Below, piece after piece: positions 6,328-56,168 of a stretch of 64,000 nt of DNA. This DNA comes from a virus: IMG/VR virus record IMGVR_UViG_3300042553_000685. One strand, written 5' to 3'. The position numbers and the translations under genes are program-made. Below the pieces are notes generated by a model that was given only the letters and a program-made list of their open reading frames with translations, made no database searches and was not told the DNA's origin. How positions within the stretch are numbered: the first letter of the stretch is position 1; each line of letters begins with the position of its first letter.

Positions 6328-6410
6328 GGGTTAGTGGCCGAGTAGTCGAAGGCGACAGACTGTAAATCTGTAGATTTAATTCCACGCTGGTGCAAATCCA
6401 GCTTAACCCA
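6328..6410 (+). tRNA. tRNA-Tyr (GTA), long-variable-arm type
   Basis: Hand fold gives acceptor GGGTTAG/TTAACCC (one G:T pair), D arm GCC-GAGTAGTCGAA-GGC, and anticodon arm ACAGA-CTGTAAA-TCTGT. It also gives a 14-nt variable region and T arm GCTGG-TGCAAAT-CCAGC. No CCA is encoded. The T-loop has G where U55 is expected. Confidence 0.65.
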
Positions 6411-6438
6411 CTAAAATAAATAAGGATTGAAATAACCA

Positions 6439-7744: not shown

Positions 7745-8183
7745 CAGACCGTGGTACTACGTTATATATAAGGGCCCCGATTCTTATATAGGTGTGACTG
7801 ATTATCTCGCGGCCGTGGCGCATGATAGGCAGTCTAGTCTAAGTTTTATGACACAGCAGAGTAGATTACTCAATTACCTGAAGAAGGGGCGCGCAGATTA
7901 TAAAACTAGTATCCGCGTAGCCCGCGCCATTAGGCCCGCCAGTGTAATAGGTTATGGTAACTATCTAGTAAGACAGAAGGGACACCTATCAGTTATTGAG
8001 CGGTGTGATGTTAGTACTCCTCATAGTCATAAGCATTTGAAATCCGCGCGGGCCGAGTTGATTATCTATCTCGAATGCGAGATGGACCGATGGAGTAAAA
8101 CAATTAGGACTATACGGAGATTAGATGCAGATAACGTTCAACGGCCCCTATCAGATGCTGCTGGGTCCGGCAGGGAGTGGTAA
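7728..8183 (+). CDS. Hypothetical protein (151 aa)
   Basis: ORF overlaps both neighbours. The N-terminal YYVIYKGPDSYIGVT is only weakly GIY-YIG-like and the spacing is atypical. Confidence 0.45.
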   Translation: MSILDDRPWYYVIYKGPDSYIGVTDYLAAVAHDRQSSLSFMTQQSRLLNYLKKGRADYKTSIRVARAIRPASVIGYGNYLVRQKGHLSVIERCDVSTPHSHKHLKSARAELIIYLECEMDRWSKTIRTIRRLDADNVQRPLSDAAGSGREW

Positions 8184-9303
8184 AACAACATACATACAGA
8201 GTTTGAGTAAGGCCCTCATCACTAGTAGTACTGGCGTGAGCGCTATTAATGCAGGCGGTACTACTATTCACGCGGCCCTCCAGTTCTTTGATACTACTAG
8301 TCTATTACGCTCCGCTTCCAGTGGAGCGCTGGCCACTAAGCTACGGGCTATATCTAATCTATTTGATACTCTAGTCATAGATGAGATCAGTATGTTACAT
8401 GGCCCGCAACTAACTATTATCCATCACGTAATGGAAAAGAGTAACATAAATATGAATCTCCTACTCGTGGGGGACTTCTGTCAATTACCACTAGTACCAG
8501 ATAAAAAGGTCACTAGCACGCCAGTCTATCAAACAGACTGCCTGCAGAGCTTCGATATACAGTACTTACGAGAGGTCAGGCGTCAGAGTGACCCCGGCTT
8601 CATACAGGCGCTGACTAGCGTAAGAGAAGGGCGGCCTCACGAAGCAGTAGATTGGTTCATAGATAATGTAGAGTTTGTCAATCAGATCGATGATAACTAC
8701 GCGGGCACTACTATCCTGACTACTAATGATAGTGTAGATAGATATAACGCCGTGCACCTAGCACAACTAGAAGGGCCTAGTCGCCTCTACACTAAGAACT
8801 ACGTTATACCGAAGGGGGGGAGGGCCGCTCCTGAGTGGAGCCAAATACCCGAATCAGTAGAGCTGAGGAAGGGCGCGCGCGTCATTCTACTTCGTAACAG
8901 ACTACCTGCGTATGCTAATGGCGATATCGCTATAGTCAAGGAGCTCATGACTAATACTATACTGGTGACAGTAGAACGTACCGGTCAGGAGACTATCATT
9001 GAATACGTGACACGAGATAATAAAGAGCTCGGCACTAACAAGCTATTGGGTCGCTGCCACTACTTACCCGTTAGACTGGGCTATGCCCTCACTGTTCATC
9101 GTAGTCAGGGGCTCACGCTTAATAACGTACAGGCTCGTCTCAGTAATTTACGTTGGCTCAGCGGGGGCCTCTATACTATTCTTAGTCGTGTACGTCATTA
9201 TAGCGGCCTCCGCCTGATAGGTACACGATCCGCCTTCTGTGATAGTTGCTATATAGAGCCTTCTATCCTTAAATTCTATAATCAGTTAGGTACTAAATCA
9301 TAA
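8125..9303 (+). CDS. SF1 helicase (Pif1 / RecD / Dda-like)
   Basis: Walker A GPAGSGKTT, Walker B VIDEISM, LLLVGDFCQLP, and TVHRSQGLT. Confidence 0.85.
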   Translation: MQITFNGPYQMLLGPAGSGKTTYIQSLSKALITSSTGVSAINAGGTTIHAALQFFDTTSLLRSASSGALATKLRAISNLFDTLVIDEISMLHGPQLTIIHHVMEKSNINMNLLLVGDFCQLPLVPDKKVTSTPVYQTDCLQSFDIQYLREVRRQSDPGFIQALTSVREGRPHEAVDWFIDNVEFVNQIDDNYAGTTILTTNDSVDRYNAVHLAQLEGPSRLYTKNYVIPKGGRAAPEWSQIPESVELRKGARVILLRNRLPAYANGDIAIVKELMTNTILVTVERTGQETIIEYVTRDNKELGTNKLLGRCHYLPVRLGYALTVHRSQGLTLNNVQARLSNLRWLSGGLYTILSRVRHYSGLRLIGTRSAFCDSCYIEPSILKFYNQLGTKS

Positions 9304-10187: not shown

Positions 10188-10604
10188 ATGCTTACTGAAT
10201 TTTTGCATGATTGGGTCAAGTCTGAGCCTCACATTTGTGGGTATGGGTTGGGTACTTTTCGGAATACCTTTTTTATCGAACTATCTTGGGGTGATTGGAT
10301 TTCTATCTCTACCTCTGGTCCTGATCCCTTTTTGTTAGATCGGGGGTCGCTTGCTAAGTTGATCTATTTTTTCCAAATGCGTCTAGATAGCTTTGGTTAT
10401 GGTTGGGTTATTCAACGATTACCTAATAGTTATACTGTGACAGTTAGTGTGAATTCTGATCCTTACGAGACTTCACGTTGTTTTGTCTCTCGGCAAGAGT
10501 CTCTCATTGAAGCTTTGCTAGAGGTGTATTTAAAGGTGGTTGCTTATAAGAAAAAGTCGTTTTTACGTCCAGTAAAAAAGAAGGCATTTGATGAAAGAGA
10601 TTAA
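10188..10604 (+). CDS. Hypothetical protein (138 aa) leading the small-ORF array
   Basis: ORF ends ...FDERD-TAA inside the first array start box (ttt GAT GAA AGA GAT TAA read as ATG AAA GAG ATT AAT). This is the same junction architecture as the array units. Confidence 0.55.
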   Translation: MLTEFLHDWVKSEPHICGYGLGTFRNTFFIELSWGDWISISTSGPDPFLLDRGSLAKLIYFFQMRLDSFGYGWVIQRLPNSYTVTVSVNSDPYETSRCFVSRQESLIEALLEVYLKVVAYKKKSFLRPVKKKAFDERD

Positions 10605-10832
10605 TACAAATTATTGGGCGCCCCATAATCATGAATGGGCACCGTATCATGATTATGGGCTGCGCCTATACCTATTACTAACCTACCAATTTTAGCAAAC
10701 GGTGATAGTTTATACTATAGCTTCTACGTTTATAATGCTGGGGGGCCCGCTAAGTTTTATTATAAACTGGCAGGAAATGTATATAAGATTCTAGATGAGG
10801 ACGGTTATTTCGATGAAGATTATCAATTGTAA
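10591..10832 (+). pseudogene. Array unit 1, frameshifted
   Basis: MKEINTNYWAPHNHEWAPYHDYG is in one frame. (W)AAPIPITNLPILANGDSLYYSFYVYNAGGPAKFYYKLAGNVYKILDEDGYFDEDYQL is in the next frame. The break is at the G-run 10657-10659, where one extra G would restore the frame. Confidence 0.5.
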
Positions 10833-11025
10833 CGGTTGGGCTCCTCGTAATACTAGATGGGCTCCATATTGGGGTGAACTTGTACCTATTACTGATCCTC
10901 TGATAACAAGTGGTTATAGTTTATACTATAAGTTTCATACTTATAATAATGAAGGGCTTGCTTGGTTTTATCGTAAACTATCGCCAGATGAGAATGATTA
11001 TCTCTATGAAGAATGGTTGGCTTAG
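10795..11025 (+). CDS. Array unit small protein
   Basis: MK-box start at 10813. Blocks are INCNGWAPRN, VPITDPL, SLYYKF, LAWFYRKL. Confidence 0.45.
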   Translation: MRTVISMKIINCNGWAPRNTRWAPYWGELVPITDPLITSGYSLYYKFHTYNNEGLAWFYRKLSPDENDYLYEEWLA

Positions 11026-11221
11026 TAGTAATTGGGGTCCACATATGTCTATATCTGGATCTATTACTGACCCGGCGATTCTAGCAAACGGCGATAATTT
11101 ATATTATACATGGTTCTATGAAAGTATAATTGGGGCCTATACTCTTGAATTAGACAAGTTATATTTTTCTATCGACTTGTTTTATTATAACCTGCGTTTT
11201 TATCAGCGCTCTTTAACATAG
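10910..11221 (+). CDS. Array unit small protein (long subtype)
   Basis: The unit proper starts at 10988/11006 (MRMIISMKNGW). Blocks are ITDPAILANGDNLYYTWFY and YTLELDKLYFSIDLFYY. Confidence 0.4.
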   Translation: MVIVYTISFILIIMKGLLGFIVNYRQMRMIISMKNGWLSSNWGPHMSISGSITDPAILANGDNLYYTWFYESIIGAYTLELDKLYFSIDLFYYNLRFYQRSLT

Positions 11222-11242
11222 ACTGGTATATTGATATTTTAG

Positions 11243-11467
11243 GTGAGGATGATTATTTCGATGAAAACAATTGATTTATGCTGGGCTCTGTATGATGAAT
11301 GGGGTATACCTGTACTTATCACTGCTCCGCCAGTAGTAAATATCAATAATTTATATTATAGCTTCTATCCTTATAATTCTAGAGAACTTGCTATATTTTA
11401 CTATAGTCTGTCGTGGGGTAGTATTTTTTTTCTAGATGAGGATGATTATTTCAATGAAGATGATTAA
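11243..11467 (+). CDS. Array unit small protein (subtype A)
   Basis: MK start at 11261. Blocks are LITAPPVVNINNLYYSFY, LAIFYY, and tail LDEDDYFNEDD. Confidence 0.45.
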   Translation: MRMIISMKTIDLCWALYDEWGIPVLITAPPVVNINNLYYSFYPYNSRELAIFYYSLSWGSIFFLDEDDYFNEDD

Positions 11468-11648
11468 TTGTAGCAATTGGGCCCCACGTAATCCGTTGAA
11501 TATACCTATACCTATTACTGACCCGCCTGTTGACCTACAGGGATTATTAGGTAAATTGTATTTTGCTTATAGCCCTGGGAGACTCGCCTGGTTTTATTAT
11601 AGGCTGGGAGAATTTGTGATATTTTATTATATATGGCTTTTTGAATAG
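11436..11648 (+). CDS. Array unit small protein (subtype B)
   Basis: MK start at 11454. Blocks are INCSNWAPRN, IPIPITDPPVDLQG, RLAWFYYRLGEFVI. Confidence 0.45.
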   Translation: MRMIISMKMINCSNWAPRNPLNIPIPITDPPVDLQGLLGKLYFAYSPGRLAWFYYRLGEFVIFYYIWLFE

Positions 11649-11663
11649 GGGGCAATTACTTCA

Positions 11664-11822
11664 ATGAGAGCGATTAGATGTAACAGGCTTAATTACTTTT
11701 TTTATTTTGTTGAGGGTCTCGATACCTATACTCCTGAATTAAGGTTTTATGCTGTCGACCGATTTTACTATAGACTGTGTATACACATGGCAGATAAGTA
11801 TATATGGGGCCTATACCCTTGA
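11664..11822 (+). CDS. Array unit small protein (subtype C, 52 aa)
   Basis: Below the ORF-track cutoff. Translation is MRAIRCNRLNYFFYFVEGLDTYTPELRFYAVDRFYYRL... Confidence 0.3.
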   Translation: MRAIRCNRLNYFFYFVEGLDTYTPELRFYAVDRFYYRLCIHMADKYIWGLYP

Positions 11823-11931
11823 ATTACACAAGTTATATGTCTCTATCAACTTCTTTTATTTCAAGGCGTTTTACTACAGACAGGATATTGATATTTTAGT
11901 TGAGGATAACTATCTCTATGAAAACAATTAA
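11749..11931 (+). CDS. Partial array unit ORF
   Basis: Contains YTLELHKLYVSINFFYF and ends in the junction box (EDNYLYENN-stop). It lacks the MK-box N-terminus and may be a remnant. Confidence 0.3.
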   Translation: MLSTDFTIDCVYTWQISIYGAYTLELHKLYVSINFFYFKAFYYRQDIDILVEDNYLYENN

Positions 11932-12127
11932 TCCAAATTGCTGGGCCCCGTATGAGTGTGAATGGATTGCACCTATACCTATCACTGCTCCGCCAGTAGC
12001 AAATATCAATAATTTATACCATAGTTTCTATATTTATAATTCTACAGGACTTGCTATATTTTACTATAGACTGTCGGGGATAGTATTATATAATCTATAT
12101 GAGGATGATTATTTCTTCAATGAATAA
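11900..12127 (+). CDS. Array unit small protein (subtype A)
   Basis: MK start at 11918. Blocks are INPNCWAP, IPITAPPVANINNLYHSFY, LAIFYYRL. Confidence 0.45.
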   Translation: MRITISMKTINPNCWAPYECEWIAPIPITAPPVANINNLYHSFYIYNSTGLAIFYYRLSGIVLYNLYEDDYFFNE

Positions 12128-12359
12128 GATTAATTCTAACAATTGGGCCCCACGTAATCAGTCGAGTATACCTATACCTATTACTGACCCGCCTGTTGGC
12201 CTACAGGGATTATGCTTTTTTGCTTATAATCCTGAGAGACTCGTCTGGTTTTATTATAGACTAGGAAGTATGTTATATAACATTCTAGATAAGGACAGTT
12301 ATTTCAGTGTGCTATACAACATTCTATATGAGGACAATTATTTCGATGAAGAAGATTAA
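12099..12359 (+). CDS. Array unit small protein (subtype B)
   Basis: MNKIN start at 12120. Blocks are NNWAPRN, IPIPITDPPVGLQG, RLVWFYYRL, and tail YEDNYFDEED. Confidence 0.45.
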   Translation: MRMIISSMNKINSNNWAPRNQSSIPIPITDPPVGLQGLCFFAYNPERLVWFYYRLGSMLYNILDKDSYFSVLYNILYEDNYFDEED

Positions 12360-12558
12360 TTCTGATAATTGGGCTCCTCGTAATAAAAGAGCCCCGCATG
12401 CGTGGACTTCATACATACCTATCACTAATCCGCTTCTAGCGAGCGTTGATAACTTATACTATAGCTTTTATGATGTGGTGCTGTTTTATTATATACTGGA
12501 AAGAGTAGCATCATATAACATTTTGGATGAGGACAATTACTTCTATGAAGATGATTAA
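12307..12558 (+). CDS. Array unit small protein
   Basis: MKKIN start at 12346. Blocks are SDNWAPRNK, YIPITNPL, NLYYSFY, LDEDNYFYEDD. It is the first member of a duplicated two-unit block. Confidence 0.45.
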   Translation: MCYTTFYMRTIISMKKINSDNWAPRNKRAPHAWTSYIPITNPLLASVDNLYYSFYDVVLFYYILERVASYNILDEDNYFYEDD

Positions 12559-12739
12559 TTGTAATGGTTGGGCTCCTTGTAATAAGTTGTGGGGAGCCGC
12601 ACCTATACCTATTACTAACCCATTGATAGCAAACCATAATAGTTTATACGATAACTTTTATGTCAGAGGAGTCGCTTGGGTTTACTACAACCTATCTGAG
12701 CCTACTATAACCTACCATTATTTCTATGAAGAAGATTAA
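12527..12739 (+). CDS. Array unit small protein
   Basis: MK start at 12545. Blocks are INCNGWAPCNK, APIPITNPLIANHNSLY, VAWVYYNL. Confidence 0.45.
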   Translation: MRTITSMKMINCNGWAPCNKLWGAAPIPITNPLIANHNSLYDNFYVRGVAWVYYNLSEPTITYHYFYEED

Positions 12740-12938
12740 TTCTGATAATTGGGCTCCTTTTAATAAAAGAGCCCCGTATGAGTGGGCTCCATACATACCT
12801 ATCACTAATCCGCCTCTAGTGCGCGTTGATAATTTATACTATAGCTTTTATGATGTGGTGCTGTTTTATTATATACTGGAAAGAGTAGCATCATATAACA
12901 TTCTAGATGAGGACAATTACTTCTATGAAGATGATTAA
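12726..12938 (+). CDS. Array unit small protein
   Basis: Near-identical paralog of 12346-12558 (MKKINSDNWAPFNK...LDEDNYFYEDD). Confidence 0.45.
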   Translation: MKKINSDNWAPFNKRAPYEWAPYIPITNPPLVRVDNLYYSFYDVVLFYYILERVASYNILDEDNYFYEDD

Positions 12939-13131
12939 TTGTAATGGTTGTTTTCTTCGTAATAAGCTGGTTCCATATGAGTGGGGCGCCGCACCTATAC
13001 CTATTACTAACCCATTGATAGCAAACCATAATAGTTTATACGATAACTTTTATGTCAGAGGAGTCGCTTGGGTTTACTACAACCTATCTGAGCCTACTAT
13101 AACCTATCATTATTTCTATGAAGAAGATTAA
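12907..13131 (+). CDS. Array unit small protein
   Basis: MK start at 12925. Near-identical paralog of 12545-12739 except at the N-terminus (NGCFLRNKLVPYEWG). Confidence 0.45.
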   Translation: MRTITSMKMINCNGCFLRNKLVPYEWGAAPIPITNPLIANHNSLYDNFYVRGVAWVYYNLSEPTITYHYFYEED

Positions 13132-13309
13132 TTGTAACGATTGGGCTCCTCGTAATAAGCCGGTTCCGTATGAAGAGGCCGCACCCATACCTATTACTAA
13201 CCCGTTGATAGTAAACCATAATTATTTATACTATAACTTTCACACTTATAGTGCCGGAGGAGTCGCTTGCGTTTACCGTAATATAACCTATCATTATTTC
13301 TATGAATAA
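13118..13309 (+). CDS. Array unit small protein
   Basis: MKKINCNDWAPRNK, APIPITNPLIVNHNYLYYNF. The stop lies inside the next start box (ATGAATAA). Confidence 0.45.
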   Translation: MKKINCNDWAPRNKPVPYEEAAPIPITNPLIVNHNYLYYNFHTYSAGGVACVYRNITYHYFYE

Positions 13310-13529
13310 GATTAATTGTATTGGTTGGGCTCCGCGTAATATTAAATGGGCTCAGTCTGGATGGGGGGCATATGTACCTACTGCTGTCCCTCCAATAGCA
13401 GATAATAAGTTATTCTATAACTTCTATTTTTATCATGATGGAGGGCCAGCCAGGTTTTACAATAGACTAGTAGGAGTAGTGTTGTATAGCTTTCTGGATG
13501 AGGACAATTACTTTAATAAAGATGATTAA
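13302..13529 (+). CDS. Array unit small protein
   Basis: MNKINCIGWAPRN, YVPTAVPPIADNKLFYNFY, ARFYNRL, LDEDNYFNKDD. Confidence 0.45.
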   Translation: MNKINCIGWAPRNIKWAQSGWGAYVPTAVPPIADNKLFYNFYFYHDGGPARFYNRLVGVVLYSFLDEDNYFNKDD

Positions 13530-13806
13530 TTGTAACAATTGGGCGCCTCATAGTAATAACGATTGTTGGACTGCACGTAATAAGTTGAGTATACCGATAC
13601 CTATTACTGACCCACCGATTTTACCAAATGGTGATAATCTATACTATCTATGGTTCTATCGTTACTACCATGAAAGCATGGGTCTCGGGGCCTATATCCC
13701 TGAATTGAACAAGTTACATGTTCCTATCAACGTGTTTTATCATAGATTAGGAAATGTGTTATATAACATTCTAAATGAGGACGGTTATTTCGATGAAGAT
13801 GATTAA
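13498..13806 (+). CDS. Array unit small protein (long subtype)
   Basis: MK start at 13522. Blocks are IPIPITDPPILPNGDNLYYLWFY, YIPELNKLHVPINVFYHRL, and tail NEDGYFDEDD. Confidence 0.45.
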   Translation: MRTITLIKMINCNNWAPHSNNDCWTARNKLSIPIPITDPPILPNGDNLYYLWFYRYYHESMGLGAYIPELNKLHVPINVFYHRLGNVLYNILNEDGYFDEDD

Positions 13807-13984
13807 TTGTAATGGTCGGGCTCTGAACAATAAGCTTAAGATCTCTATGCTTATTGAGCCTTCTGTTGGTGACCTACAGGTGTATTTTGCTTGTAGTCCT
13901 GGGAGACTCAGACTCACCTGGTTTTATTATAGACTGGGAGAATTTGTGATATATGGCCTTTATGGGGGGCGGTTACCTCAATGA
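13775..13984 (+). CDS. Array unit small protein (subtype B, diverged)
   Basis: MK start at 13793. Blocks are INCNGRALNNK, VGDLQ, RLTWFYYRLGEFVI. Confidence 0.4.
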   Translation: MRTVISMKMINCNGRALNNKLKISMLIEPSVGDLQVYFACSPGRLRLTWFYYRLGEFVIYGLYGGRLPQ

Positions 13985-14154
13985 GGGCGATTAGTTGTAA
14001 CAAGCTTAATTACTTGTTTTATTATTATGAGGATGTGGGCCTCGAGAGTCATATCCCTGAATTAAGCAGGTGCTCTATCAACCGGTTTTATTATAGGCTG
14101 ATAGCTGTAATACACAACATACTATATAGGTATACATTCTATGAAGATGATTGA
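13981..14154 (+). CDS. Array unit small protein (subtype C, 57 aa)
   Basis: Below the ORF-track cutoff. Translation is MRAISCNKLNYLFYYYEDVGLESHIPELSRCSINRFYYRL...YEDD. It has an ATGA overlap with the upstream stop. Confidence 0.35.
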   Translation: MRAISCNKLNYLFYYYEDVGLESHIPELSRCSINRFYYRLIAVIHNILYRYTFYEDD

Positions 14155-14329
14155 TAACGCTCCCGACCTTGCTTTGTTTTACAACTTGATTCTATACAGT
14201 TGGAATGTGTATAATAAGCACAAGGCCTCTATACCTATTAACACTGTCAACCTGTTTTACTATAGACTAGTGGCTTTTATATATAACGCTCTAGATGAGA
14301 GTGATTACTTTAATGAAGAATATTTCTAA
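14141..14329 (+). CDS. Array unit small protein (diverged)
   Basis: MKMIDN..., IPINTVNLFYYRL, LDESDYFNEEYF. Confidence 0.35.
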   Translation: MKMIDNAPDLALFYNLILYSWNVYNKHKASIPINTVNLFYYRLVAFIYNALDESDYFNEEYF

Positions 14330-14468
14330 CGATTTGTATGACATTACCTTATCTTACTACTGGAATGTGTGTGATAAGCTGAAGGGCCATACACATATTA
14401 ACCCTACCGGCGAGTTTTTATACCTGTTTTACTATAGACTGATAAGTGTATTGTCTGACACATTCTAG
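14313..14468 (+). CDS. Array unit small ORF (51 aa, diverged)
   Basis: MKNISNDLYDITLSYYWNVCDKLKGHTHINPTGEFLYLFYYRL... Below the ORF-track cutoff. Confidence 0.3.
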   Translation: MKNISNDLYDITLSYYWNVCDKLKGHTHINPTGEFLYLFYYRLISVLSDTF

Positions 14469-14514
14469 ATGAGAATGAATAAGGATGATATTATATATAA
14501 GGACGGTTATTCTG

Positions 14515-14661
14515 GTGAAGACTATTATATGTGACGAGTGGACTCTACACAATAAGCTTAGAGCCTCTATGCTTATTAAGCCTTTTGTTAGGGCAGCCTA
14601 CTTAGTGTTTAATAAGCAGGTTTACTCTAGATTATATATAGCGGGACGATTATTTCTATGA
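14515..14661 (+). CDS. Array unit small ORF (48 aa, GTG start, diverged WTLHNK subtype)
   Basis: VKTIICDEWTLHNKLRASMLIKPFVRAAYLV...SRL. Its stop overlaps the next ATG (ATGA at 14658). Confidence 0.25.
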   Translation: MKTIICDEWTLHNKLRASMLIKPFVRAAYLVFNKQVYSRLYIAGRLFL

Positions 14662-14861
14662 AGATAATTGATTGTAATGGCTGGACTTCGCGTAATATCT
14701 TTAATATGCCTATACCTATTACTGACCCGCCTGTTGACCTACAGGGATTGTTAGTTGCTTATAGTCCTGGGGGACTTGCTTGGTTTTATTATAGATTACT
14801 AGAACTTGTAATATATAGTTTTCTTAATAGAGAGGACGATTATTTCAATGAAGATGATTAA
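14658..14861 (+). CDS. Array unit small protein (subtype B)
   Basis: MKIIDCNGWTSRN, MPIPITDPPVDLQG, LAWFYYRL, REDDYFNEDD. Confidence 0.45.
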   Translation: MKIIDCNGWTSRNIFNMPIPITDPPVDLQGLLVAYSPGGLAWFYYRLLELVIYSFLNREDDYFNEDD

Positions 14862-15039
14862 CTGTGACACGCACATTCAGATAAGTACTGACAAGCTAAA
14901 ATTAGCAAATGGTGATAATTTATACTATAGTTTCATTTTTACTATATTTGGAGGGCCCGCCAGGTTTTACTATAGACTGGTAGCTGTGATATACGACATT
15001 CTATATGAGGATGATTATTTCAATGAAGAATATTTCTAA
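14848..15039 (+). CDS. Array unit small protein
   Basis: MKMINCD..., LANGDNLYYSF, ARFYYRL, YEDDYFNEEYF. Confidence 0.4.
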   Translation: MKMINCDTHIQISTDKLKLANGDNLYYSFIFTIFGGPARFYYRLVAVIYDILYEDDYFNEEYF

Positions 15040-15301
15040 CGATTGTCTGTTACCTTGGATTTTGAATAATGATTATCTCAATGCCTTGCGCTTGTTTCAT
15101 TATTATGAAGAAATGGGTTTCGAGATTTATACTCCTAAGCTAAGCAAGTGTTGCGGCTCTATATTCCGGTTTTACTGTAGATTGGTAAATATGTTAGAAA
15201 ACATCCTGGATAAGGATGATATTCTAGATGAGGGCGATTATTATCTTGAGGATGGCCAATTCGATGAATATGAGGACGGTTATTTCGATGAAGATGATTA
15301 A
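15005..15301 (+). CDS. Array unit small protein (subtype C, extended acidic tail)
   Basis: MK start at 15023. Blocks are LRLFHYYEEMGFEIYTPKLSKC, FRFYCRL, and the long tail DKDDILDEGDYYLEDGQFDEYEDGYFDEDD. Confidence 0.4.
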   Translation: MRMIISMKNISNDCLLPWILNNDYLNALRLFHYYEEMGFEIYTPKLSKCCGSIFRFYCRLVNMLENILDKDDILDEGDYYLEDGQFDEYEDGYFDEDD

Positions 15302-15440
15302 TGATTGGTCTCTGCACAATAAGCTTATTAAGGCCCCTATGCTTGAGTTTTCCGTTGGGGCAAATTACTTAGTAACCCGGTTTTATTGGTTTATTATTCT
15401 AAATGAGGACGGTTATTTCGATGAAGATGATTATGATTAA
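15228..15440 (+). CDS. Array unit small ORF (degenerate)
   Basis: MK start at 15288. Blocks are MKMINDWSLHNKL..., NEDGYFDEDDYD. Confidence 0.3.
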   Translation: MRAIIILRMANSMNMRTVISMKMINDWSLHNKLIKAPMLEFSVGANYLVTRFYWFIILNEDGYFDEDDYD

Positions 15441-15663
15441 TAATTGGACCTTTGAGGCCTTTATACGTATTGAGCCTTCCGTTAAGGCAAATTATAGTAT
15501 CCGGTCTTATTTAATGAGCAGGTACTATGTCGGTTTGTTTTACTCTAGATTGGGTCATAAGAGTTTGTGTGATTGGACTCTACACAATAAATTTAAAGCT
15601 TCTATACTTATTACTGAATCTTCCACTGAGACAGATAACCTAAAAAGCCTATATACTTACTGA
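15403..15663 (+). CDS. Array unit ORF (two fused degenerate units)
   Basis: MK start at 15421. It contains FYSRL followed by a second DWTLHNKFKASILI block with no intervening junction box. Confidence 0.3.
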   Translation: MRTVISMKMIMINNWTFEAFIRIEPSVKANYSIRSYLMSRYYVGLFYSRLGHKSLCDWTLHNKFKASILITESSTETDNLKSLYTY

Positions 15664-15752
15664 GCCTTTCGTTGGGGCAAATTACTTAGTAACCCGGTCT
15701 TATTTAATAAGGTCGGTTCGTTTTACTCTAGATTGAATTATAAGGGTTTGTT

Positions 15753-15938
15753 TTGATGAAGAGAATTTCTACTTATTGGATTTTATATAATAATTGGGTT
15801 CTGTGTAATAATGATTATTTCAAATTGGGTGAGCTTTACGACTGGACTCTCAACAATAAGCTCAAGGCCTCTATACTTATTACTTTTATAAATCAATTTT
15901 ACTATAGACTGCTATACAATTATTTCGATGAAGACTAA
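15753..15938 (+). CDS. Array unit small ORF (degenerate)
   Basis: ATG at 15756. Blocks are DWTLNNKLKASILI, QFYYRL, YFDED. Confidence 0.3.
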   Translation: MMKRISTYWILYNNWVLCNNDYFKLGELYDWTLNNKLKASILITFINQFYYRLLYNYFDED

Positions 15939-16061
15939 ATTGTAATATTTGGATTCTACACAATAAGCTGAAGGCCTCTATATTTATTACCTCTGTCGAC
16001 CAGTTTTACTATAGACTGGTAAGTAAATTGTCTAACACATTTTAGATGAGAATGAGTAAGG

Positions 16062-16277
16062 ATGACATTATACATAAGGACAGTTATTTCAATGAAGATG
16101 ATTTCAATGAAGATGATTATGATTAATAATTGGTCTCTACACAATAAGCTTAAGGCCTCTATGCTTATTGAGCCTTTCGTTGGGGCAAATTACTTAGTAA
16201 CCCGGTCTTATTTAATGAGCAGGAATCATGTTGGTTCGTTTTACTCTAGATTGAATCATAAGGGTTTGTTTGAATGA
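16062..16277 (+). CDS. Array unit small ORF (degenerate)
   Basis: Duplicated MKMI box. Blocks are NNWSLHNKLKASMLIEPFVGANYLV, SFYSRL. Confidence 0.3.
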   Translation: MTLYIRTVISMKMISMKMIMINNWSLHNKLKASMLIEPFVGANYLVTRSYLMSRNHVGSFYSRLNHKGLFE

Positions 16278-16405
16278 AGGCTATTTCTAACTATTGGATT
16301 TTCGACTGGACTCTCAACAATAAGGTCAAGGCCTTTATACTTATTACTCTTATAGATCAATTTTACTATAGAATGCTATACAATTATTTCGATGAAGACT
16401 ATTAA
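16274..16405 (+). CDS. Array unit small ORF (43 aa)
   Basis: MKAISNYWIFDWTLNNKVKAFILITLIDQFYYRMLYNYFDEDY. Below the ORF-track cutoff. Confidence 0.25.
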   Translation: MKAISNYWIFDWTLNNKVKAFILITLIDQFYYRMLYNYFDEDY

Positions 16406-16562
16406 TCATAACGATTGGACTCTGCACAATAAGCTGAAGGCCTCTATGTTTATGCCTGAACCACCCATTGAGACATATCACTTAATGCGTAAGTTTTATG
16501 ATTGTAATTCTTTCGAACTTGCCTTGTTTTATTACAGACTGGAAGTATGCAATTTATGCTAG
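16392..16562 (+). CDS. Last array unit small ORF (56 aa)
   Basis: MKTINHNDWTLHNKLKASMFMPEPPIETYH...LALFYYRLEVCNLC. The array and the AT-rich composition both end here. Confidence 0.3.
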   Translation: MKTINHNDWTLHNKLKASMFMPEPPIETYHLMRKFYDCNSFELALFYYRLEVCNLC

Positions 16563-16848
16563 AGGGCGATATGTGGTGCGATAGACGAGATATAAATATA
16601 TGGCCTGAACCATGTTAAAGATATCCCTTGAGAACGGTAGTATGGATGACCTGGGGTGGGCCTAGACGCCGGCGGTAATAGTATATTGAGGTACCTATTG
16701 AAAAAACTATCCGAGATATTCTTATGGTACGGGCCACGGGTAAGTGACATCACTTATCTCGAGCATCTTGCCATTAACAGGCAATATGTATTAATGTTTA
16801 AGTTCAAGCTTAGTTATTATAGAGCATTCATACAATATACGGAGAGCG

Positions 16849-18042
16849 GTGACGAGAGAGAATGAACAACTGATAATGGAGCGGTTAACTATACCAGAAC
16901 TATTAAATCTGCGGCATGGTACTAATGATTGTCCTGCTTGTGGGGGGCGCGGTAAGCTAAGTGTATATCCGCACTATATGAAGTGCTGGAGAACTAGTTG
17001 TGAGTTGAATGCAGGTATGGGTCTGGTTAATGCCTGGCGTTGGCATACTAAGCTTGATTATGCTGGGGCTATGCAACAGTTAGAGGCCCGCGCTGGTATA
17101 CGTCAGGCCCGCGAGGTTATGGATGCTCGCAGTATAGTACTAGAGAGCGCACTAGAGGCCTATCATTATTATCTTGATACTACGCCTGCTGCTCAGGATT
17201 ATATACTACGGCGGGGCTGGTCTCTCGATCTAGCTCGTAGTATTGGTATAGGGTATGCTCCTCCTGGTGGTCTACGTCAATTCAATATAGATCATGAGGC
17301 ATTAGCTCGCGAGGGTCTGATTAAGGAGGACGGCGAGGATTACTATAGGGAACGCATTATATTCCCTATACGAGATACACGAGGCCATCTAGTCCATATG
17401 GTTGGTCGCTATATAGGTAGTAGTGAGAGGGCCCCCCGTTATAAGGATACGCGGGCCGCTATTAATAGTAAGCGCTATCTCTATCTAGAACATTGTCTTA
17501 AGGAGTATAGTAAGCACCCAGCTCGCGAGCTATATATAGTTGAGGGCCCACCCGATGCCACATCACTAATAGGTCGTGGTTTACCTGTAGTGGGATTATT
17601 GGGTCTGGAGTATCTATTATGTCACACCAGTAAATTCAAGCCCTTCCGTCGTATCACATTTATATTCGACTCAGATAAGTATAGCGATGATCATCCTACT
17701 CATGCCGGTGTATATAAGAGTTGGGTGCGTATCATACCTCAACTAGTTCAACTGCAGGTTAACTTACCATTAGCTGAGCTTATGACGTATATGGTTGCTG
17801 ATTATAAGGATATTAATGAGTGGTTGGTAGCAGAGCCTCGCGTTAATGCTGCTGATACTATCAATGCTAACCGCATACTATTCGTAGATGATTTACTAGC
17901 TCAATGGGGGCCCGATATTAGTCATCACGTAGATATATTACGGGTATTGACTGCTACTCATTCCCCCTTAGGGCTACTGGCCCCTTATGTAGATAATCAA
18001 TTAGGGCCCCTTGAATATGCCTCTCTACTATTCGGATCCTGA
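16849..18042 (+). CDS. DnaG-type DNA primase (zinc finger + TOPRIM)
   Basis: CPACGGRGK...CWRTSC zinc ribbon, with TOPRIM signatures YIVEGPPDATSL and FIFDSDK. The probable start is ATG 16862 or 16877. Confidence 0.8.
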   Translation: MTRENEQLIMERLTIPELLNLRHGTNDCPACGGRGKLSVYPHYMKCWRTSCELNAGMGLVNAWRWHTKLDYAGAMQQLEARAGIRQAREVMDARSIVLESALEAYHYYLDTTPAAQDYILRRGWSLDLARSIGIGYAPPGGLRQFNIDHEALAREGLIKEDGEDYYRERIIFPIRDTRGHLVHMVGRYIGSSERAPRYKDTRAAINSKRYLYLEHCLKEYSKHPARELYIVEGPPDATSLIGRGLPVVGLLGLEYLLCHTSKFKPFRRITFIFDSDKYSDDHPTHAGVYKSWVRIIPQLVQLQVNLPLAELMTYMVADYKDINEWLVAEPRVNAADTINANRILFVDDLLAQWGPDISHHVDILRVLTATHSPLGLLAPYVDNQLGPLEYASLLFGS

Positions 18043-19894: not shown

Positions 19895-20389
19895 ATGCTT
19901 AACATTCAAGTCCGTCAGGGTGTATTTGAAACTAATAGTTCGAGCACCCATAGTATATCTATTCCCTGTCAGACTAGCCTTACTATCCCTGAATTAATAC
20001 ATTTCGAGATTGGCGATTTCGGTTCTGATACTAGTATCCTGAGTTCTATAGCAGCCAAGGCCAGTTATTTATACACAGGCTTCGCTGCTAACGATAGAAT
20101 GAAAGACGCCTATGACATAATACTCTACCTGCTATCAGAGGGTATTGCTGTAACTGCCGAGGATGTAGTATATGACGAATACGAAAGTCTTAATGGCGGC
20201 TATATGGACCACGCCAACGAGTTGAATGGATTCCTCGATGCTATTGTAGCTAATAAGGATATGATGATGCGTTATCTATTCTCGCCCTATAGCTTTATCC
20301 TAACCGGTAGTGATAATGACTACAGTTATGTAATTGATAATAAGGAAGTGATGGAGTATGCTAGCGACTTCTTTTACAAGGGCAATTAG
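19895..20389 (+). CDS. Hypothetical protein (164 aa) with N-terminal FETNSSSTHS motif
   Basis: ORF lies directly upstream of the radical SAM gene. The N-terminus MLNIQVRQGVFETNSSSTHSISI looks like a conserved signature that I cannot place. Confidence 0.55.
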   Translation: MLNIQVRQGVFETNSSSTHSISIPCQTSLTIPELIHFEIGDFGSDTSILSSIAAKASYLYTGFAANDRMKDAYDIILYLLSEGIAVTAEDVVYDEYESLNGGYMDHANELNGFLDAIVANKDMMMRYLFSPYSFILTGSDNDYSYVIDNKEVMEYASDFFYKGN

Positions 20390-21326
20390 ATATCACTACC
20401 CCCGCCTTATGAATAAGTTTAATGAATTAACAACCTTAGCGCATTATATTAATGGTGACTATGAGTGTACCCTATATGCTGATGGTACCCTGGTTCGTAC
20501 TACAAGTGTGGTCGGGGCCCGCCCTGCCTATCCCTGCTCTATAGATATTAAGATCACTGACTACTGTGATATGGGATGTAGGTATTGTCATGAGAGTTCT
20601 ACTCGTAATGGTAAACACGCTGACCTAACACGGTTACTCGATGTCCTTAGTGATATACCTGCTGGGGTCGAATTAGCAAACGGAGGGGGTAACCCACTAT
20701 CTCATCCTGATATAGTGGATTACCTAGTAGAACTTAAGGCCCGCGGGCTTATAGCTAACATTACTGTTAACCAGGGTCATCTACATCGCTACGCTACTCT
20801 AATAGAGGATATCGTAAGCCAGGAGTTAGTGCGGGGCCTCGGTATCTCAATCACTAGTAGTAACTATAGCAGTCTGATACCAGTACTGAGTCTCTCAGAT
20901 AACATCGTGTATCACATCATCGCTGGTATCCATCCCGTTAGTATAATCGATGAGTTGGTTAGTCTTAGCGCTGCAACCAGTAAGGTACTCGTACTAGGCT
21001 ATAAGAACTTCGGCTTCGGTATAGATTATCATAGCCCTGAGGTAGTTGCAGGCATAGCGCAGTGGCGGCGTCTCCTACCCTCTCTTATAGGTAAGTGTAA
21101 TCTCTCCTTTGATAACCTGGCTATCGAACAGTTAGAGCTCAGACGTTTATTCACTGATGAAGGGTGGACCCGCTTCTATATGGGCGATGACTTCCAGTTT
21201 ACTATGTATATTGATGCGGTTAAGCAGCAGTATGCTCCTACTAGTCGTAGTTATAACCGTACGTCATTTGACTCTACTTCACTAATCGATTACTTCCAGG
21301 CAGGCTTCTCATGCACATCAAGCTAG
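20358..21326 (+). CDS. Radical SAM enzyme
   Basis: CxxxCxxC cluster motif ITDYCDMGCRYCHES and a GGE-like ANGGGNPLSHPD. There is no Cys-rich SPASM-type C-terminus. The likely start is ATG 20409 (MNKFNELT). Confidence 0.8.
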   Translation: MLATSFTRAIRYHYPRLMNKFNELTTLAHYINGDYECTLYADGTLVRTTSVVGARPAYPCSIDIKITDYCDMGCRYCHESSTRNGKHADLTRLLDVLSDIPAGVELANGGGNPLSHPDIVDYLVELKARGLIANITVNQGHLHRYATLIEDIVSQELVRGLGISITSSNYSSLIPVLSLSDNIVYHIIAGIHPVSIIDELVSLSAATSKVLVLGYKNFGFGIDYHSPEVVAGIAQWRRLLPSLIGKCNLSFDNLAIEQLELRRLFTDEGWTRFYMGDDFQFTMYIDAVKQQYAPTSRSYNRTSFDSTSLIDYFQAGFSCTSS

Positions 21327-55173: not shown

Positions 55174-55356
55174 TTGCAAAAAACACCTAAAGGATTGGAA
55201 ACAATGAGGTACAGAATCAGGACAATAGATAAAAAAAATAAGCCTTGCAGAATTAGAACATCTATGCACGAAAGCCGACTAATGGCTTACTTAGAAGCTC
55301 TAAGTCGCAGCGGGCACCATAGCATCGTAGTAAAGGAAACAGTAGGTATTTCCTAA
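55174..55356 (+). CDS. Basic small protein, moron island
   Basis: TTG in the track. The more likely start is ATG 55204 (MRYRIRTIDKKNKPCRIRT...). Confidence 0.35.
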   Translation: MQKTPKGLETMRYRIRTIDKKNKPCRIRTSMHESRLMAYLEALSRSGHHSIVVKETVGIS

Positions 55357-55381
55357 TAATTTCACCCAACAGGAGTAACAA

Positions 55382-55744
55382 ATGGACATAAAACAAATAA
55401 CAGAGAAAATATTGGAATTCTGTCACAGAAGTTATCCAAATTTAAAATGGAATCTTGACTCTGAAAATAATATAATTCAGTGTCCACTTTTTCCTGATGA
55501 ATTAATAATAGAGGTTTTTCTGGATGGACTGCTTAAGCGTGTTTCATGCGAAGCGTATTATGTAGGCACGTTTGGATTATGGATAAACCCTGACGATAAA
55601 GACAATAACTATCCTTATGAGAATCAAATAGCATTTGATTATATTAGAAAGTCAAAATCTGATTATTTCGATAACAAATACAGAGAAACTCGAAAAGTAA
55701 TGCTGGACATTTTCACTTTCATTCTTGATGAGATTCAAGAGTAA
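55382..55744 (+). CDS. Island paralog family member 1 (120 aa)
   Basis: CAGGAG upstream. The N-terminal ITEKILEFCHRSYPNLKWNL aligns with the next two ORFs. Confidence 0.6.
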   Translation: MDIKQITEKILEFCHRSYPNLKWNLDSENNIIQCPLFPDELIIEVFLDGLLKRVSCEAYYVGTFGLWINPDDKDNNYPYENQIAFDYIRKSKSDYFDNKYRETRKVMLDIFTFILDEIQE

Positions 55745-55757
55745 ATAGTAGCAACAG

Positions 55758-56168
55758 ATGGGCACATGGGAAATGGATGTTTATGAAAAGATAGAGGTGT
55801 TAAAACAAATCGGGGTTTTTTGTGATAATGCCTATAAAATGGTTGATTACTCAAAATGGACTCTTAAACTAAGGCAAATAGATGTTTTCACCGACTTAGT
55901 ATTAGAAGGCTCTATCAATATTCTCTATCCAAACAAGCTAAAAGGAAGATACGATGTTTGGGTTGAGTATCGTTCTAAGTCATCTAAATCTTTAGTAGTT
56001 AGGGTAGAGGGGACAGCCACTGGGCATGATTGGGTTAAGATAGATTCGATTAAAAAAGAACCAAAAAGTGAAGGAGACAACAAAACCTTAAATATCTTGA
56101 TTCCAGAAACGACAAAAATAATGGAGACTATTTTAAGTTTCACCGAAACAATTAAATCTGAGGGTTAA
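55758..56168 (+). CDS. Island paralog family member 2 (136 aa)
   Basis: EVLKQIGVFCDNAYK...KWTL at the N-terminus and GDNKTLNILIPETTKIMETILSF at the C-terminus. Confidence 0.6.
   Translation: MGTWEMDVYEKIEVLKQIGVFCDNAYKMVDYSKWTLKLRQIDVFTDLVLEGSINILYPNKLKGRYDVWVEYRSKSSKSLVVRVEGTATGHDWVKIDSIKKEPKSEGDNKTLNILIPETTKIMETILSFTETIKSEG

Follow-up and report, generated by a model that had tools for sequence, protein, structure and literature searches.

A tandem array of small paralogous genes with a conserved stop/start junction in a Ma-LMM01-like Microcystis phage: a putative set of translationally coupled cistrons

Pairs of co-directional genes that overlap at ATGA or TGATG, with translation of the downstream gene coupled to that of the upstream one (Huber et al. 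2019, PMC6728339; PMC12548453), are among the described systems closest to the locus reported here, a tandem array of about 31 paralogous small open reading frames (ORFs) in the viral record IMGVR_UViG_3300042553_000685 from IMG/VR. The whole 64,000-nt stretch that was analysed is referred to as the window, and the array occupies window positions 10591-16562 on the + strand. As in the coupled pairs, the ORFs of the array are co-directional, the upstream stop lies at or just past the downstream start, and a Shine-Dalgarno (SD)-like motif lies within the coding sequence of the upstream gene; at three of the window junctions, the overlap is a literal ATGA. The array differs from these pairs in that its spacing is mostly -14 (also -8, -17 and -20) instead of -4/-1, in that coupling here is putative, and in that the same junction, being included in the duplicated unit, occurs 20-40 times in succession.

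The same family, at the same locus, with the same junction box and on the same strand relative to the helicase and primase genes, is found in gp137-gp157 of the Microcystis phage Ma-LMM01 and in their counterparts in MaMV-DC, MaMV-DH01 and MaMV-CH01. The Staphylococcus aureus lpl cluster also consists of tandem paralogs that are strain-diversified by recombination at a common conserved segment, and its genes were presumed by the authors to be related to host interaction (Tsuru and Kobayashi 2008, PMC2568036). In lpl, however, the conserved segment lies in the middle of the ORF and the conserved unit spans two genes, whereas in the array the segment is the gene junction and whole genes are the cassettes. 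In the poxvirus K3L "gene accordion", the copy number of a host-interaction gene reportedly changes by tandem recombination. Gene accordions are transient and consist of near-identical copies under acute selection; in contrast, the array is old and permanent in the lineage, with paralogs that are only 25-50% identical. The likeness to the prfB-type +1 frameshift, i.e., a frame change at a stop with a purine-rich motif upstream, is superficial, as the array has no slippery P-site codon, its motif is too far from the stop, and a conserved ATG lies downstream.

No paper discussing the array or its junction design was found; the original Ma-LMM01 genome paper (J Bacteriol 2008), which lay outside the search, may mention the paralogs. 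The stop/start overlap itself is ordinary and the genes are already public as hypothetical proteins; the mechanism is of a known kind, and the phage gene family in which it occurs is uncharacterised and hypervariable. The array is best read as a series of separate cistrons that are probably translationally coupled and co-transcribed, that share a cassette inherited by duplication, and that form a recombining birth-and-death family, and we put the probability of this reading at roughly 0.7.

A profile built from the units and scanned against the six-frame translation of the 64 kb gave 31 matches, all on the + strand and all within 10591-16562. Open units account for 27 of the 31 copies and are 43-94 amino acids (aa) long, and the GC content of the array is 35%, compared with ~46% in the flanks. 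All unit types matched phrog_4393, a family of unknown function (8/8 units tested, E-values 1e-24 to 4e-4), and the units are homologous to Ma-LMM01 gp137-gp157. The limits of the array were drawn from the ORF lists, the profile scan, the PHROG matches and the composition. An earlier reading made from the letters alone, referred to here as the sequence-only reading, had given the interval 11436-13806 (+); this interval holds units 5-15, with nine successive +1 steps from 11900 to 13775, and is too small.

The flanks of the array share 94.7% identity with Ma-LMM01, MaMV-DC and related Fukuivirus isolates, indicating that the window comes from a Ma-LMM01-like (Fukuivirus) Microcystis myophage, with the array in its most divergent stretch: the array DNA shows only 76-81%, patchy identity to the same isolates. 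In the window, the array is placed between an ArdA-like gene and the primase gene; gp158 is described as ArdA-like in a preprint (bioRxiv 10.1101/2024.12.13.628456). In every relative, the array locus has the helicase/gp159/gp158 genes on one side and the primase gene on the other, and its members are annotated as small hypothetical proteins. The window array shares all of these features with its relatives, being tandem, running from helicase/gp158 to primase, and residing in a Fukuivirus-like genome. The number and order of the units differ, the same scan yielding 31 profile matches in the window and 24-29 in the isolates. Since independent contigs reproduce the window array, it is not an assembly artefact.

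At most units, the junction box consists of RAGG, 12 nt, and ATGAAGATNATTAA. When the junctions are aligned on the inner ATG, the ATG that opens M-K-x-I-N, the consensus reads ...CTA GAT GAG GAC GAT TAT TTC G-ATG AAG ATG ATT AAT TGT AAC. The mean ungapped pairwise identity of the box, taken over positions -24 to +17 in 27 window copies, is 58%, compared with 29-35% in neighbouring 42-nt windows and 28% in random 42-mers, and a conserved nucleotide segment of this kind in every copy is the trait that the array has in common with lpl-type clusters. An overlap was seen at 19 of the 26 classified window junctions, by 14 nt at 11, by 8, 17 or 20 nt at 6, and by 4 nt at 2, the remaining ones being gaps beside decayed copies. 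The 14-nt overlap was also observed at 202 of 323 junctions from 16 further IMG/VR loci, and it is dominant in 4 isolates and 6 metagenome contigs as well.

For the box at 12526-12558 (+), the tail DEDNYFYEDD-stop of unit 12346-12558 lies over the start of unit 12545-12739, with an outer ATG at 12527, GAGGA at 12529-12533, the inner ATG at 12545, and TAA at 12556-12558. The sequence-only reading had quoted this box (GAT GAG GAC AAT TAC TTC TAT GAA GAT GAT TAA) and placed GAGGA eleven bases upstream of the inner ATG, and both statements are exact. Its broader statement, that about 30 nt encode the tail of one unit and the N terminus of the next, holds in part. The stop/start overlap is conserved, but a dual-coding stretch of ~30 nt needs the outer ATG (ATGAGGA), which is present in only about half of the window boxes; the others read ATA-AGG, GTG-AGG or AGA-GAG at this position or have no upstream in-frame ATG, and the frames into 12726, 13118 and 13302 are open for only five codons upstream. 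The inner ATG, followed by K/N/R-x-I, occurs in every open unit (27/27). Because the inner ATG is universal and the outer ATG occurs in about half of the boxes, the consistent candidate for the cistron start is M-K-x-I-N, and dual coding usually extends over 14 nt.

The ten starts from 11900 to 13775 have residues mod 3 of 2,0,1,2,0,1,2,0,1,2, as had been listed, and nine such +1 steps in succession would have a probability of ~5e-5 if the frames were random. The step is no phenomenon in its own right, as it follows from a 3n+2 overlap inherited by tandem duplication. The common overlaps of 8, 14, 17, 20 and 32 nt are all of the form 3n+2, and because the start is fixed in the upstream tail with such an overlap, the distance between successive starts is 3k+1. 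The +1 series is an arithmetic result and no second signal. It marks the junction as homologous in every unit, since the duplicated unit includes the junction. Where the upstream stop moves, as in the ATGAATAA junctions at 12120 and 13302, the overlap is 8 nt and the MN start is kept, in agreement with what had been noted.

The junction type described above is dominant, as proposed, but not universal: some junctions are gaps by decayed units, and literal ATGA overlaps, at which the step goes the opposite way, occur at 13981, 14658 and 16274. The unit at 13981-14154 (+) is joined to its predecessor by a 4-nt overlap with a step of 2; here the box is read in the third frame by the upstream ORF, which has the tail GGRLPQ-stop. 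At 14658, the upstream ORF ends in the third frame with ...AGRLFL-stop at ATGA, and the downstream start is intact. The GGRL(L/P)Q tail is kept in five homologues (P0015, P0021, P0022, P0025 and P0028), and one-nt indels turn -14 junctions into conserved -4 junctions, the downstream start being unharmed. Because third-frame tails replace the acidic tail at the ATGA junctions, these results suggest that the box is preserved at the nucleotide level, whereas the acidic tail can be dispensed with.

As residue 2 is K, N or R in all cases, the start always reads ATGA, and a TGA is present in one non-start frame in all of the boxes. In the other non-start frame, TAA, TGA or TAG occurs by 8-20 nt in 23 of 27 boxes. 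Because stops lie in both non-start frames, ribosomes arriving in any frame would stop at the next start.

At two positions of the box, codon choice departs from local usage. The Glu codon at -16..-14 is GAG in 12 window boxes and GAA in 0, compared with 21 : 23 in the unit bodies (Fisher p = 7e-4), and across five arrays the codon at this position is GAG in 49 and AAG in 14 cases, versus GAA in 1 and AAA in 2. Variants with E to K (GAG to AAG) and D to G reverse or remove the charge and preserve the purine run, suggesting that the SD-like RAGG is favoured over acidity per se. The Phe codon at -4..-2 (e.g. 12541-12543) is TTC in 19 and TTT in 2 boxes, versus 15 : 63 in the bodies (p = 2e-9). 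For the upstream ORF, the C at -2 is synonymous. In the downstream frame it would alter a Ser, and it is relevant there only if translation starts upstream of the inner ATG; position -1 is freely G, A or T.

No stable or conserved RNA structure was detected at the junctions relative to shuffled sequences (mean z = -0.08), and the array RNA gave no Rfam match at E <= 0.1. In several units (e.g. window 10830-10845 and 12372-12381), the GAGGA of the box pairs in the predicted fold with GCTCCTC, which encodes W-A-P-R about 30 nt into the next unit, and the SD-like motif is thereby buried (P unpaired 0.00-0.01 at 10813 and 12346). This pairing is inconsistent across units, and no covariation was seen in it.

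Complete arrays range from 3.95 kb in MaMV-DC to 8.1-8.4 kb in the loci L005 and L019 (maximum 8.36 kb), with 24-42 profile matches. Entire blocks of units distinguish the window from contigs with >98.8% identity to it over kilobases. For example, contig L010 carries ~1.9 kb of additional units at window ~13814, bounded by a 174-nt direct repeat that corresponds to the 3' part of a unit plus the box. Within the window, a recent 380-nt tandem duplication of two units at 12337-13158 (+), detected with Tandem Repeats Finder, shows 91% identity, gives the unit order A-B-A-B-B', and ends in boxes. The ends of blocks with >=96% identity fall <=50 nt from the inner ATG in 56 of 82 cases, compared with 36.5 +/- 4.5 expected and with 0 of 3000 randomisations reaching 56, although these statistics, like the other counts pooled across arrays, lack phylogenetic independence and are supportive rather than decisive. 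Within 25 nt of the start, the enrichment of block ends was not significant (24 vs 18.8 expected). These results show that the array grows, shrinks and reshuffles, probably by homologous recombination between the conserved unit ends.

The units gave no informative match in scans of Pfam, NCBIfam and PADLOC. A word-indexed search of 5.8 billion proteins found 107 clusters, and an exhaustive profile search of 1.84 billion representatives gave 66 matches; in both searches, the homologues were small ORFs of Ma-LMM01-like contigs, except for P0137 (543 aa), the only long match, which was rejected as a spurious, unrelated repeat protein. A pattern-limited scan of the genomes of 185,579 species found no relative. 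Both termini of the units are conserved, and the middle is variable and aromatic-rich, the units containing 10.8% Tyr, 5.9% Phe and 2.9% Trp, compared with 4.0%, 2.7% and 1.2% in the other genes. The units form a birth-and-death family in which the ends are conserved and the middle changes fast.

In Ma-LMM01, gp137-gp157 were all assigned to class B5 "middle", as were the flanking genes (Morimoto 2018, PMC5780444 Table S3), and their log2 fragments per kilobase per million (FPKM) values are ~7.3-9.8 at 3 and 6 h (RNA-seq, PMC5780444 Table S3). The flanks are higher, with ~9.8-10.2 for gp159 and 10.9 for the gene that directly precedes the array, so that the array is 2- to 4-fold lower (PMC5780444 Table S3), a difference to which multi-mapping of reads among the paralogs may contribute. 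The uniform class and levels fit co-transcription by read-through from the helicase side towards the primase gene.

In the mechanism that we propose, the repeat unit was duplicated together with its junction, so that every copy inherits the same initiation cassette, made up of the SD-like RAGG at -16..-13, TTAYTTCN, and ATGA-AG-ATN-ATT-AA (M-K-x-I-N). The 3' end of the preceding ORF is overprinted on this cassette: the commonest upstream frame yields the acidic tail (D/Y)-E-D-x-Y-F-x-E-D-D and stops at TAA, 14 nt past the A of ATG, and the other upstream frame stops at the TGA of ATGA. The units would be co-transcribed with the helicase-to-primase middle genes, and each would be its own cistron from the inner ATG, with initiation aided by ribosomes terminating 4-20 nt from the inner ATG (coupling) and/or by the weak SD-like motif. 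The separation into cistrons is supported by the in-frame ATGs, which are kept while the upstream stop moves (8, 14, 17 and 20 nt). For the putative start at the inner ATG, termination-reinitiation and independent SD-assisted initiation are two alternatives, either of which may operate.

Several observations weigh against the coupled-cistron reading. Promoter-like hexamers occur inside the units (57 vs 32 expected), mostly from the conserved N-L-Y-Y-S-F-Y coding stretch, and internal promoters are therefore possible. The SD-like motif lies 12 nt from the ATG (-16..-13), at the long end of the range seen in the other genes of the phage (GGAG/GAGG at -8 to -14), and it is absent from the ITYHYFYEED-type junctions. 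The protein constraint is weak, with a ratio of non-synonymous to synonymous substitution rates (dN/dS) of ~0.5-0.64 (~0.64 against the arrays of the isolates), and the differences from the isolates' arrays are distributed nearly evenly across codon positions. Among relatives that are >96% identical, 60 non-synonymous and 29 synonymous changes were counted, 19.5% synonymous being expected under random mutation. At least four units are disrupted. Two AlphaFold2 models, from alignments of 34 and 90 sequences, are of low confidence and mutually inconsistent, with predicted local distance difference test (pLDDT) scores of 46 (mostly strand) and 59 (mostly helix), so that neither fold backs a function. 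The pooling of block ends and counts across arrays, mentioned above, belongs here too.

The strongest rival is a strict relay along one mRNA, in which translation of each unit would fall mainly to the ribosome coming off the preceding one, after termination there and a slide back of ~11 nt; we regard it as possible but clearly the less likely course. It accords with the stops 4-20 nt past the start in both non-start frames at nearly all junctions, and with the shared temporal class and similar RNA levels of the Ma-LMM01 homologues. Back-scanning after termination is accepted as possible for short overlaps (PMC12548453; PMC6728339), and the starts are not sequestered by stable RNA (mean z = -0.08), so that coupling through RNA unfolding is not indicated. 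However, a geometric loss of yield is expected over 30 steps, and the -14 spacing differs from the canonical -4/-1 at which reinitiation was demonstrated. Moreover, the chain is broken by gaps of 15-190 nt and by pseudogenes, and later units (11261, 11664, 11918 and 16107) are intact with RAGG. Because these post-break units keep RAGG, de novo initiation is possible and the relay is weakened. The single unbroken chain of about 30 cistrons that the sequence-only reading had envisaged is thus not found, as ATGA junctions, gaps and no fewer than four disrupted units intervene.

An extension of the coupled-cistron reading, which we consider rather unlikely, is that the box serves both as a three-frame translational reset and as a homology anchor for unequal recombination, letting the phage reshuffle host-targeting small proteins (e.g. 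anti-defence or decoy proteins) against a defence-rich Microcystis. If this were the case, the box would be a phage counterpart of a contingency locus.

Less likely again is that the array is a mostly functionless, decaying repeat kept by recombination, its ORFs and boxes being leftovers of one ancestral gene. The dN/dS of 0.5-0.64, the near-even substitutions over codon positions, the several frameshifted or start-less copies, the low GC, the widely varying copy number, the lack of a confident fold, and the restriction of the homologues found to these phages all speak for such a repeat. In contrast, ~27/31 units are open, whereas simulated neutral change at the observed divergence gave a per-unit probability of remaining open of only 0.17-0.59, a comparison that is qualitative only, as the open units were preselected and ascertainment inflates the joint probability. 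In addition, codon choice at two box positions is kept in opposition to local usage, and the array, which is transcribed, occupies the same locus in all sequenced relatives.

It is very improbable that the units are precursors of ribosomally synthesised and post-translationally modified peptides (RiPPs), matured by a radical S-adenosylmethionine (SAM) enzyme encoded 3.8 kb downstream. Many small paralogs with conserved ends and variable, aromatic-rich middles are reminiscent of such precursors, and the protein encoded at 20358-21326 (+) does match the radical SAM family (Pfam PF04055, 33 bits). However, its best score against specific maturase models is 26 bits, with cut-offs of 180-650, its gene belongs to a conserved replication module with five genes between it and the array, no protease or transporter gene is nearby, and the units have no leader-plus-core layout, both ends being conserved. 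The RiPP precursor idea was rejected, the radical SAM protein being generic. On this protein, the scores of viperin-like, MoaA-like and peptide-maturase models all fall far short of the cut-offs, and the relatives' annotation for it is "Fe-S oxidoreductase".

Programmed +1 frameshifting or read-through at each box, fusing the units into polyproteins, is equally far-fetched and was rejected: both frames are open over 14-50 nt per junction and the needed shift is always +1, but UAU UUC NAU GAA GAU GAU UAA offers no P-site re-pairing in +1, the distance of >20 nt between the purine motif and the stop is unlike that of the prfB stimulator, the position of the stop varies (8, 14, 17, 20 nt) or its frame does (ATGA) with the ATG and M-K-x-I-N retained, every intact unit has its own ATG, and no long fused homologue occurs among the 1.84 billion representatives.

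Viral control of toxic Microcystis blooms is modelled in culture chiefly with Ma-LMM01-type phages, in which ~70% of the genes are without known function. Within a genome region that is otherwise 95% conserved, no part varies more than the array, which accounts for 3-5% of the genome and is transcribed. Being hypervariable and transcribed, it is a reasonable place to seek determinants of host range or defence evasion. The products might conceivably be host-acting, anti-defence or host-takeover proteins; a role in host interaction is hinted at by the ArdA-like gp158, the defence-rich Microcystis and the fast evolution of the array. Microcystis has been reported to be unusually rich in defence genes (PMC5780444). 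The >200 natural variants of one -14 junction, together with the -8, -17, -20 and -4 derivatives, are usable for studying the restart distance of terminating ribosomes.

The disrupted copies lie at several points along the array. The first unit, at 10591-10832 (+), is broken by a 2-nt indel near 10653 and is intact (79 aa) in near-identical metagenome contigs. A decayed unit at 11664-11931 (+) is split over two frames (11664-11822 and 11743-11931). For the pseudogene unit at 15932-16045 (+), the start was lost via a 2-nt deletion in the box (ATGAAGACTAAATTGTAA). The top intrinsic-terminator-like hairpin of the array, at 15694-15726 (+), has a 10-bp stem followed by a T-run and lies within a degenerate unit where the chain of ORFs breaks (15663-15756).

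Upstream of the array, the operon is flanked by a helicase gene (AAA_30/AAA_19) at 8125-9303 (+), and a 138-aa ORF with the tail ...AFDERD-stop lies directly 5' of the array at 10188-10604 (+). The start of the first unit overlaps this ORF by 14 nt (ATGAAAGAGATTAA), as at typical junctions, and the ORF itself gave no match in the Pfam, NCBIfam and PADLOC scans. Downstream, the DNA primase gene at 16849-18042 (+) starts 287 nt past the last unit. The window array is without the IS (insertion sequence) element or the three extra genes that separate the array from the primase gene in relatives; the slot concerned (16562-16849) is empty in the window, and in Ma-LMM01 the IS element is located there. 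In MaMV-DH01 and MaMV-CH01, a gene between the array and the primase gene is homologous, with 91% identity, to a 120-aa gene found in the window at 55382-55744 (within 55353-55766, +), in an island of 32-36% GC. Because its content varies among the relatives and one of its genes lies elsewhere in the window, the slot between the array and the primase gene looks like a hotspot of insertion or exchange. About 4 kb 5' of the array and on the same strand, the window encodes a tRNA-Tyr (anticodon GTA) at 6328-6411 (+), which could serve the Tyr-codon-rich array.

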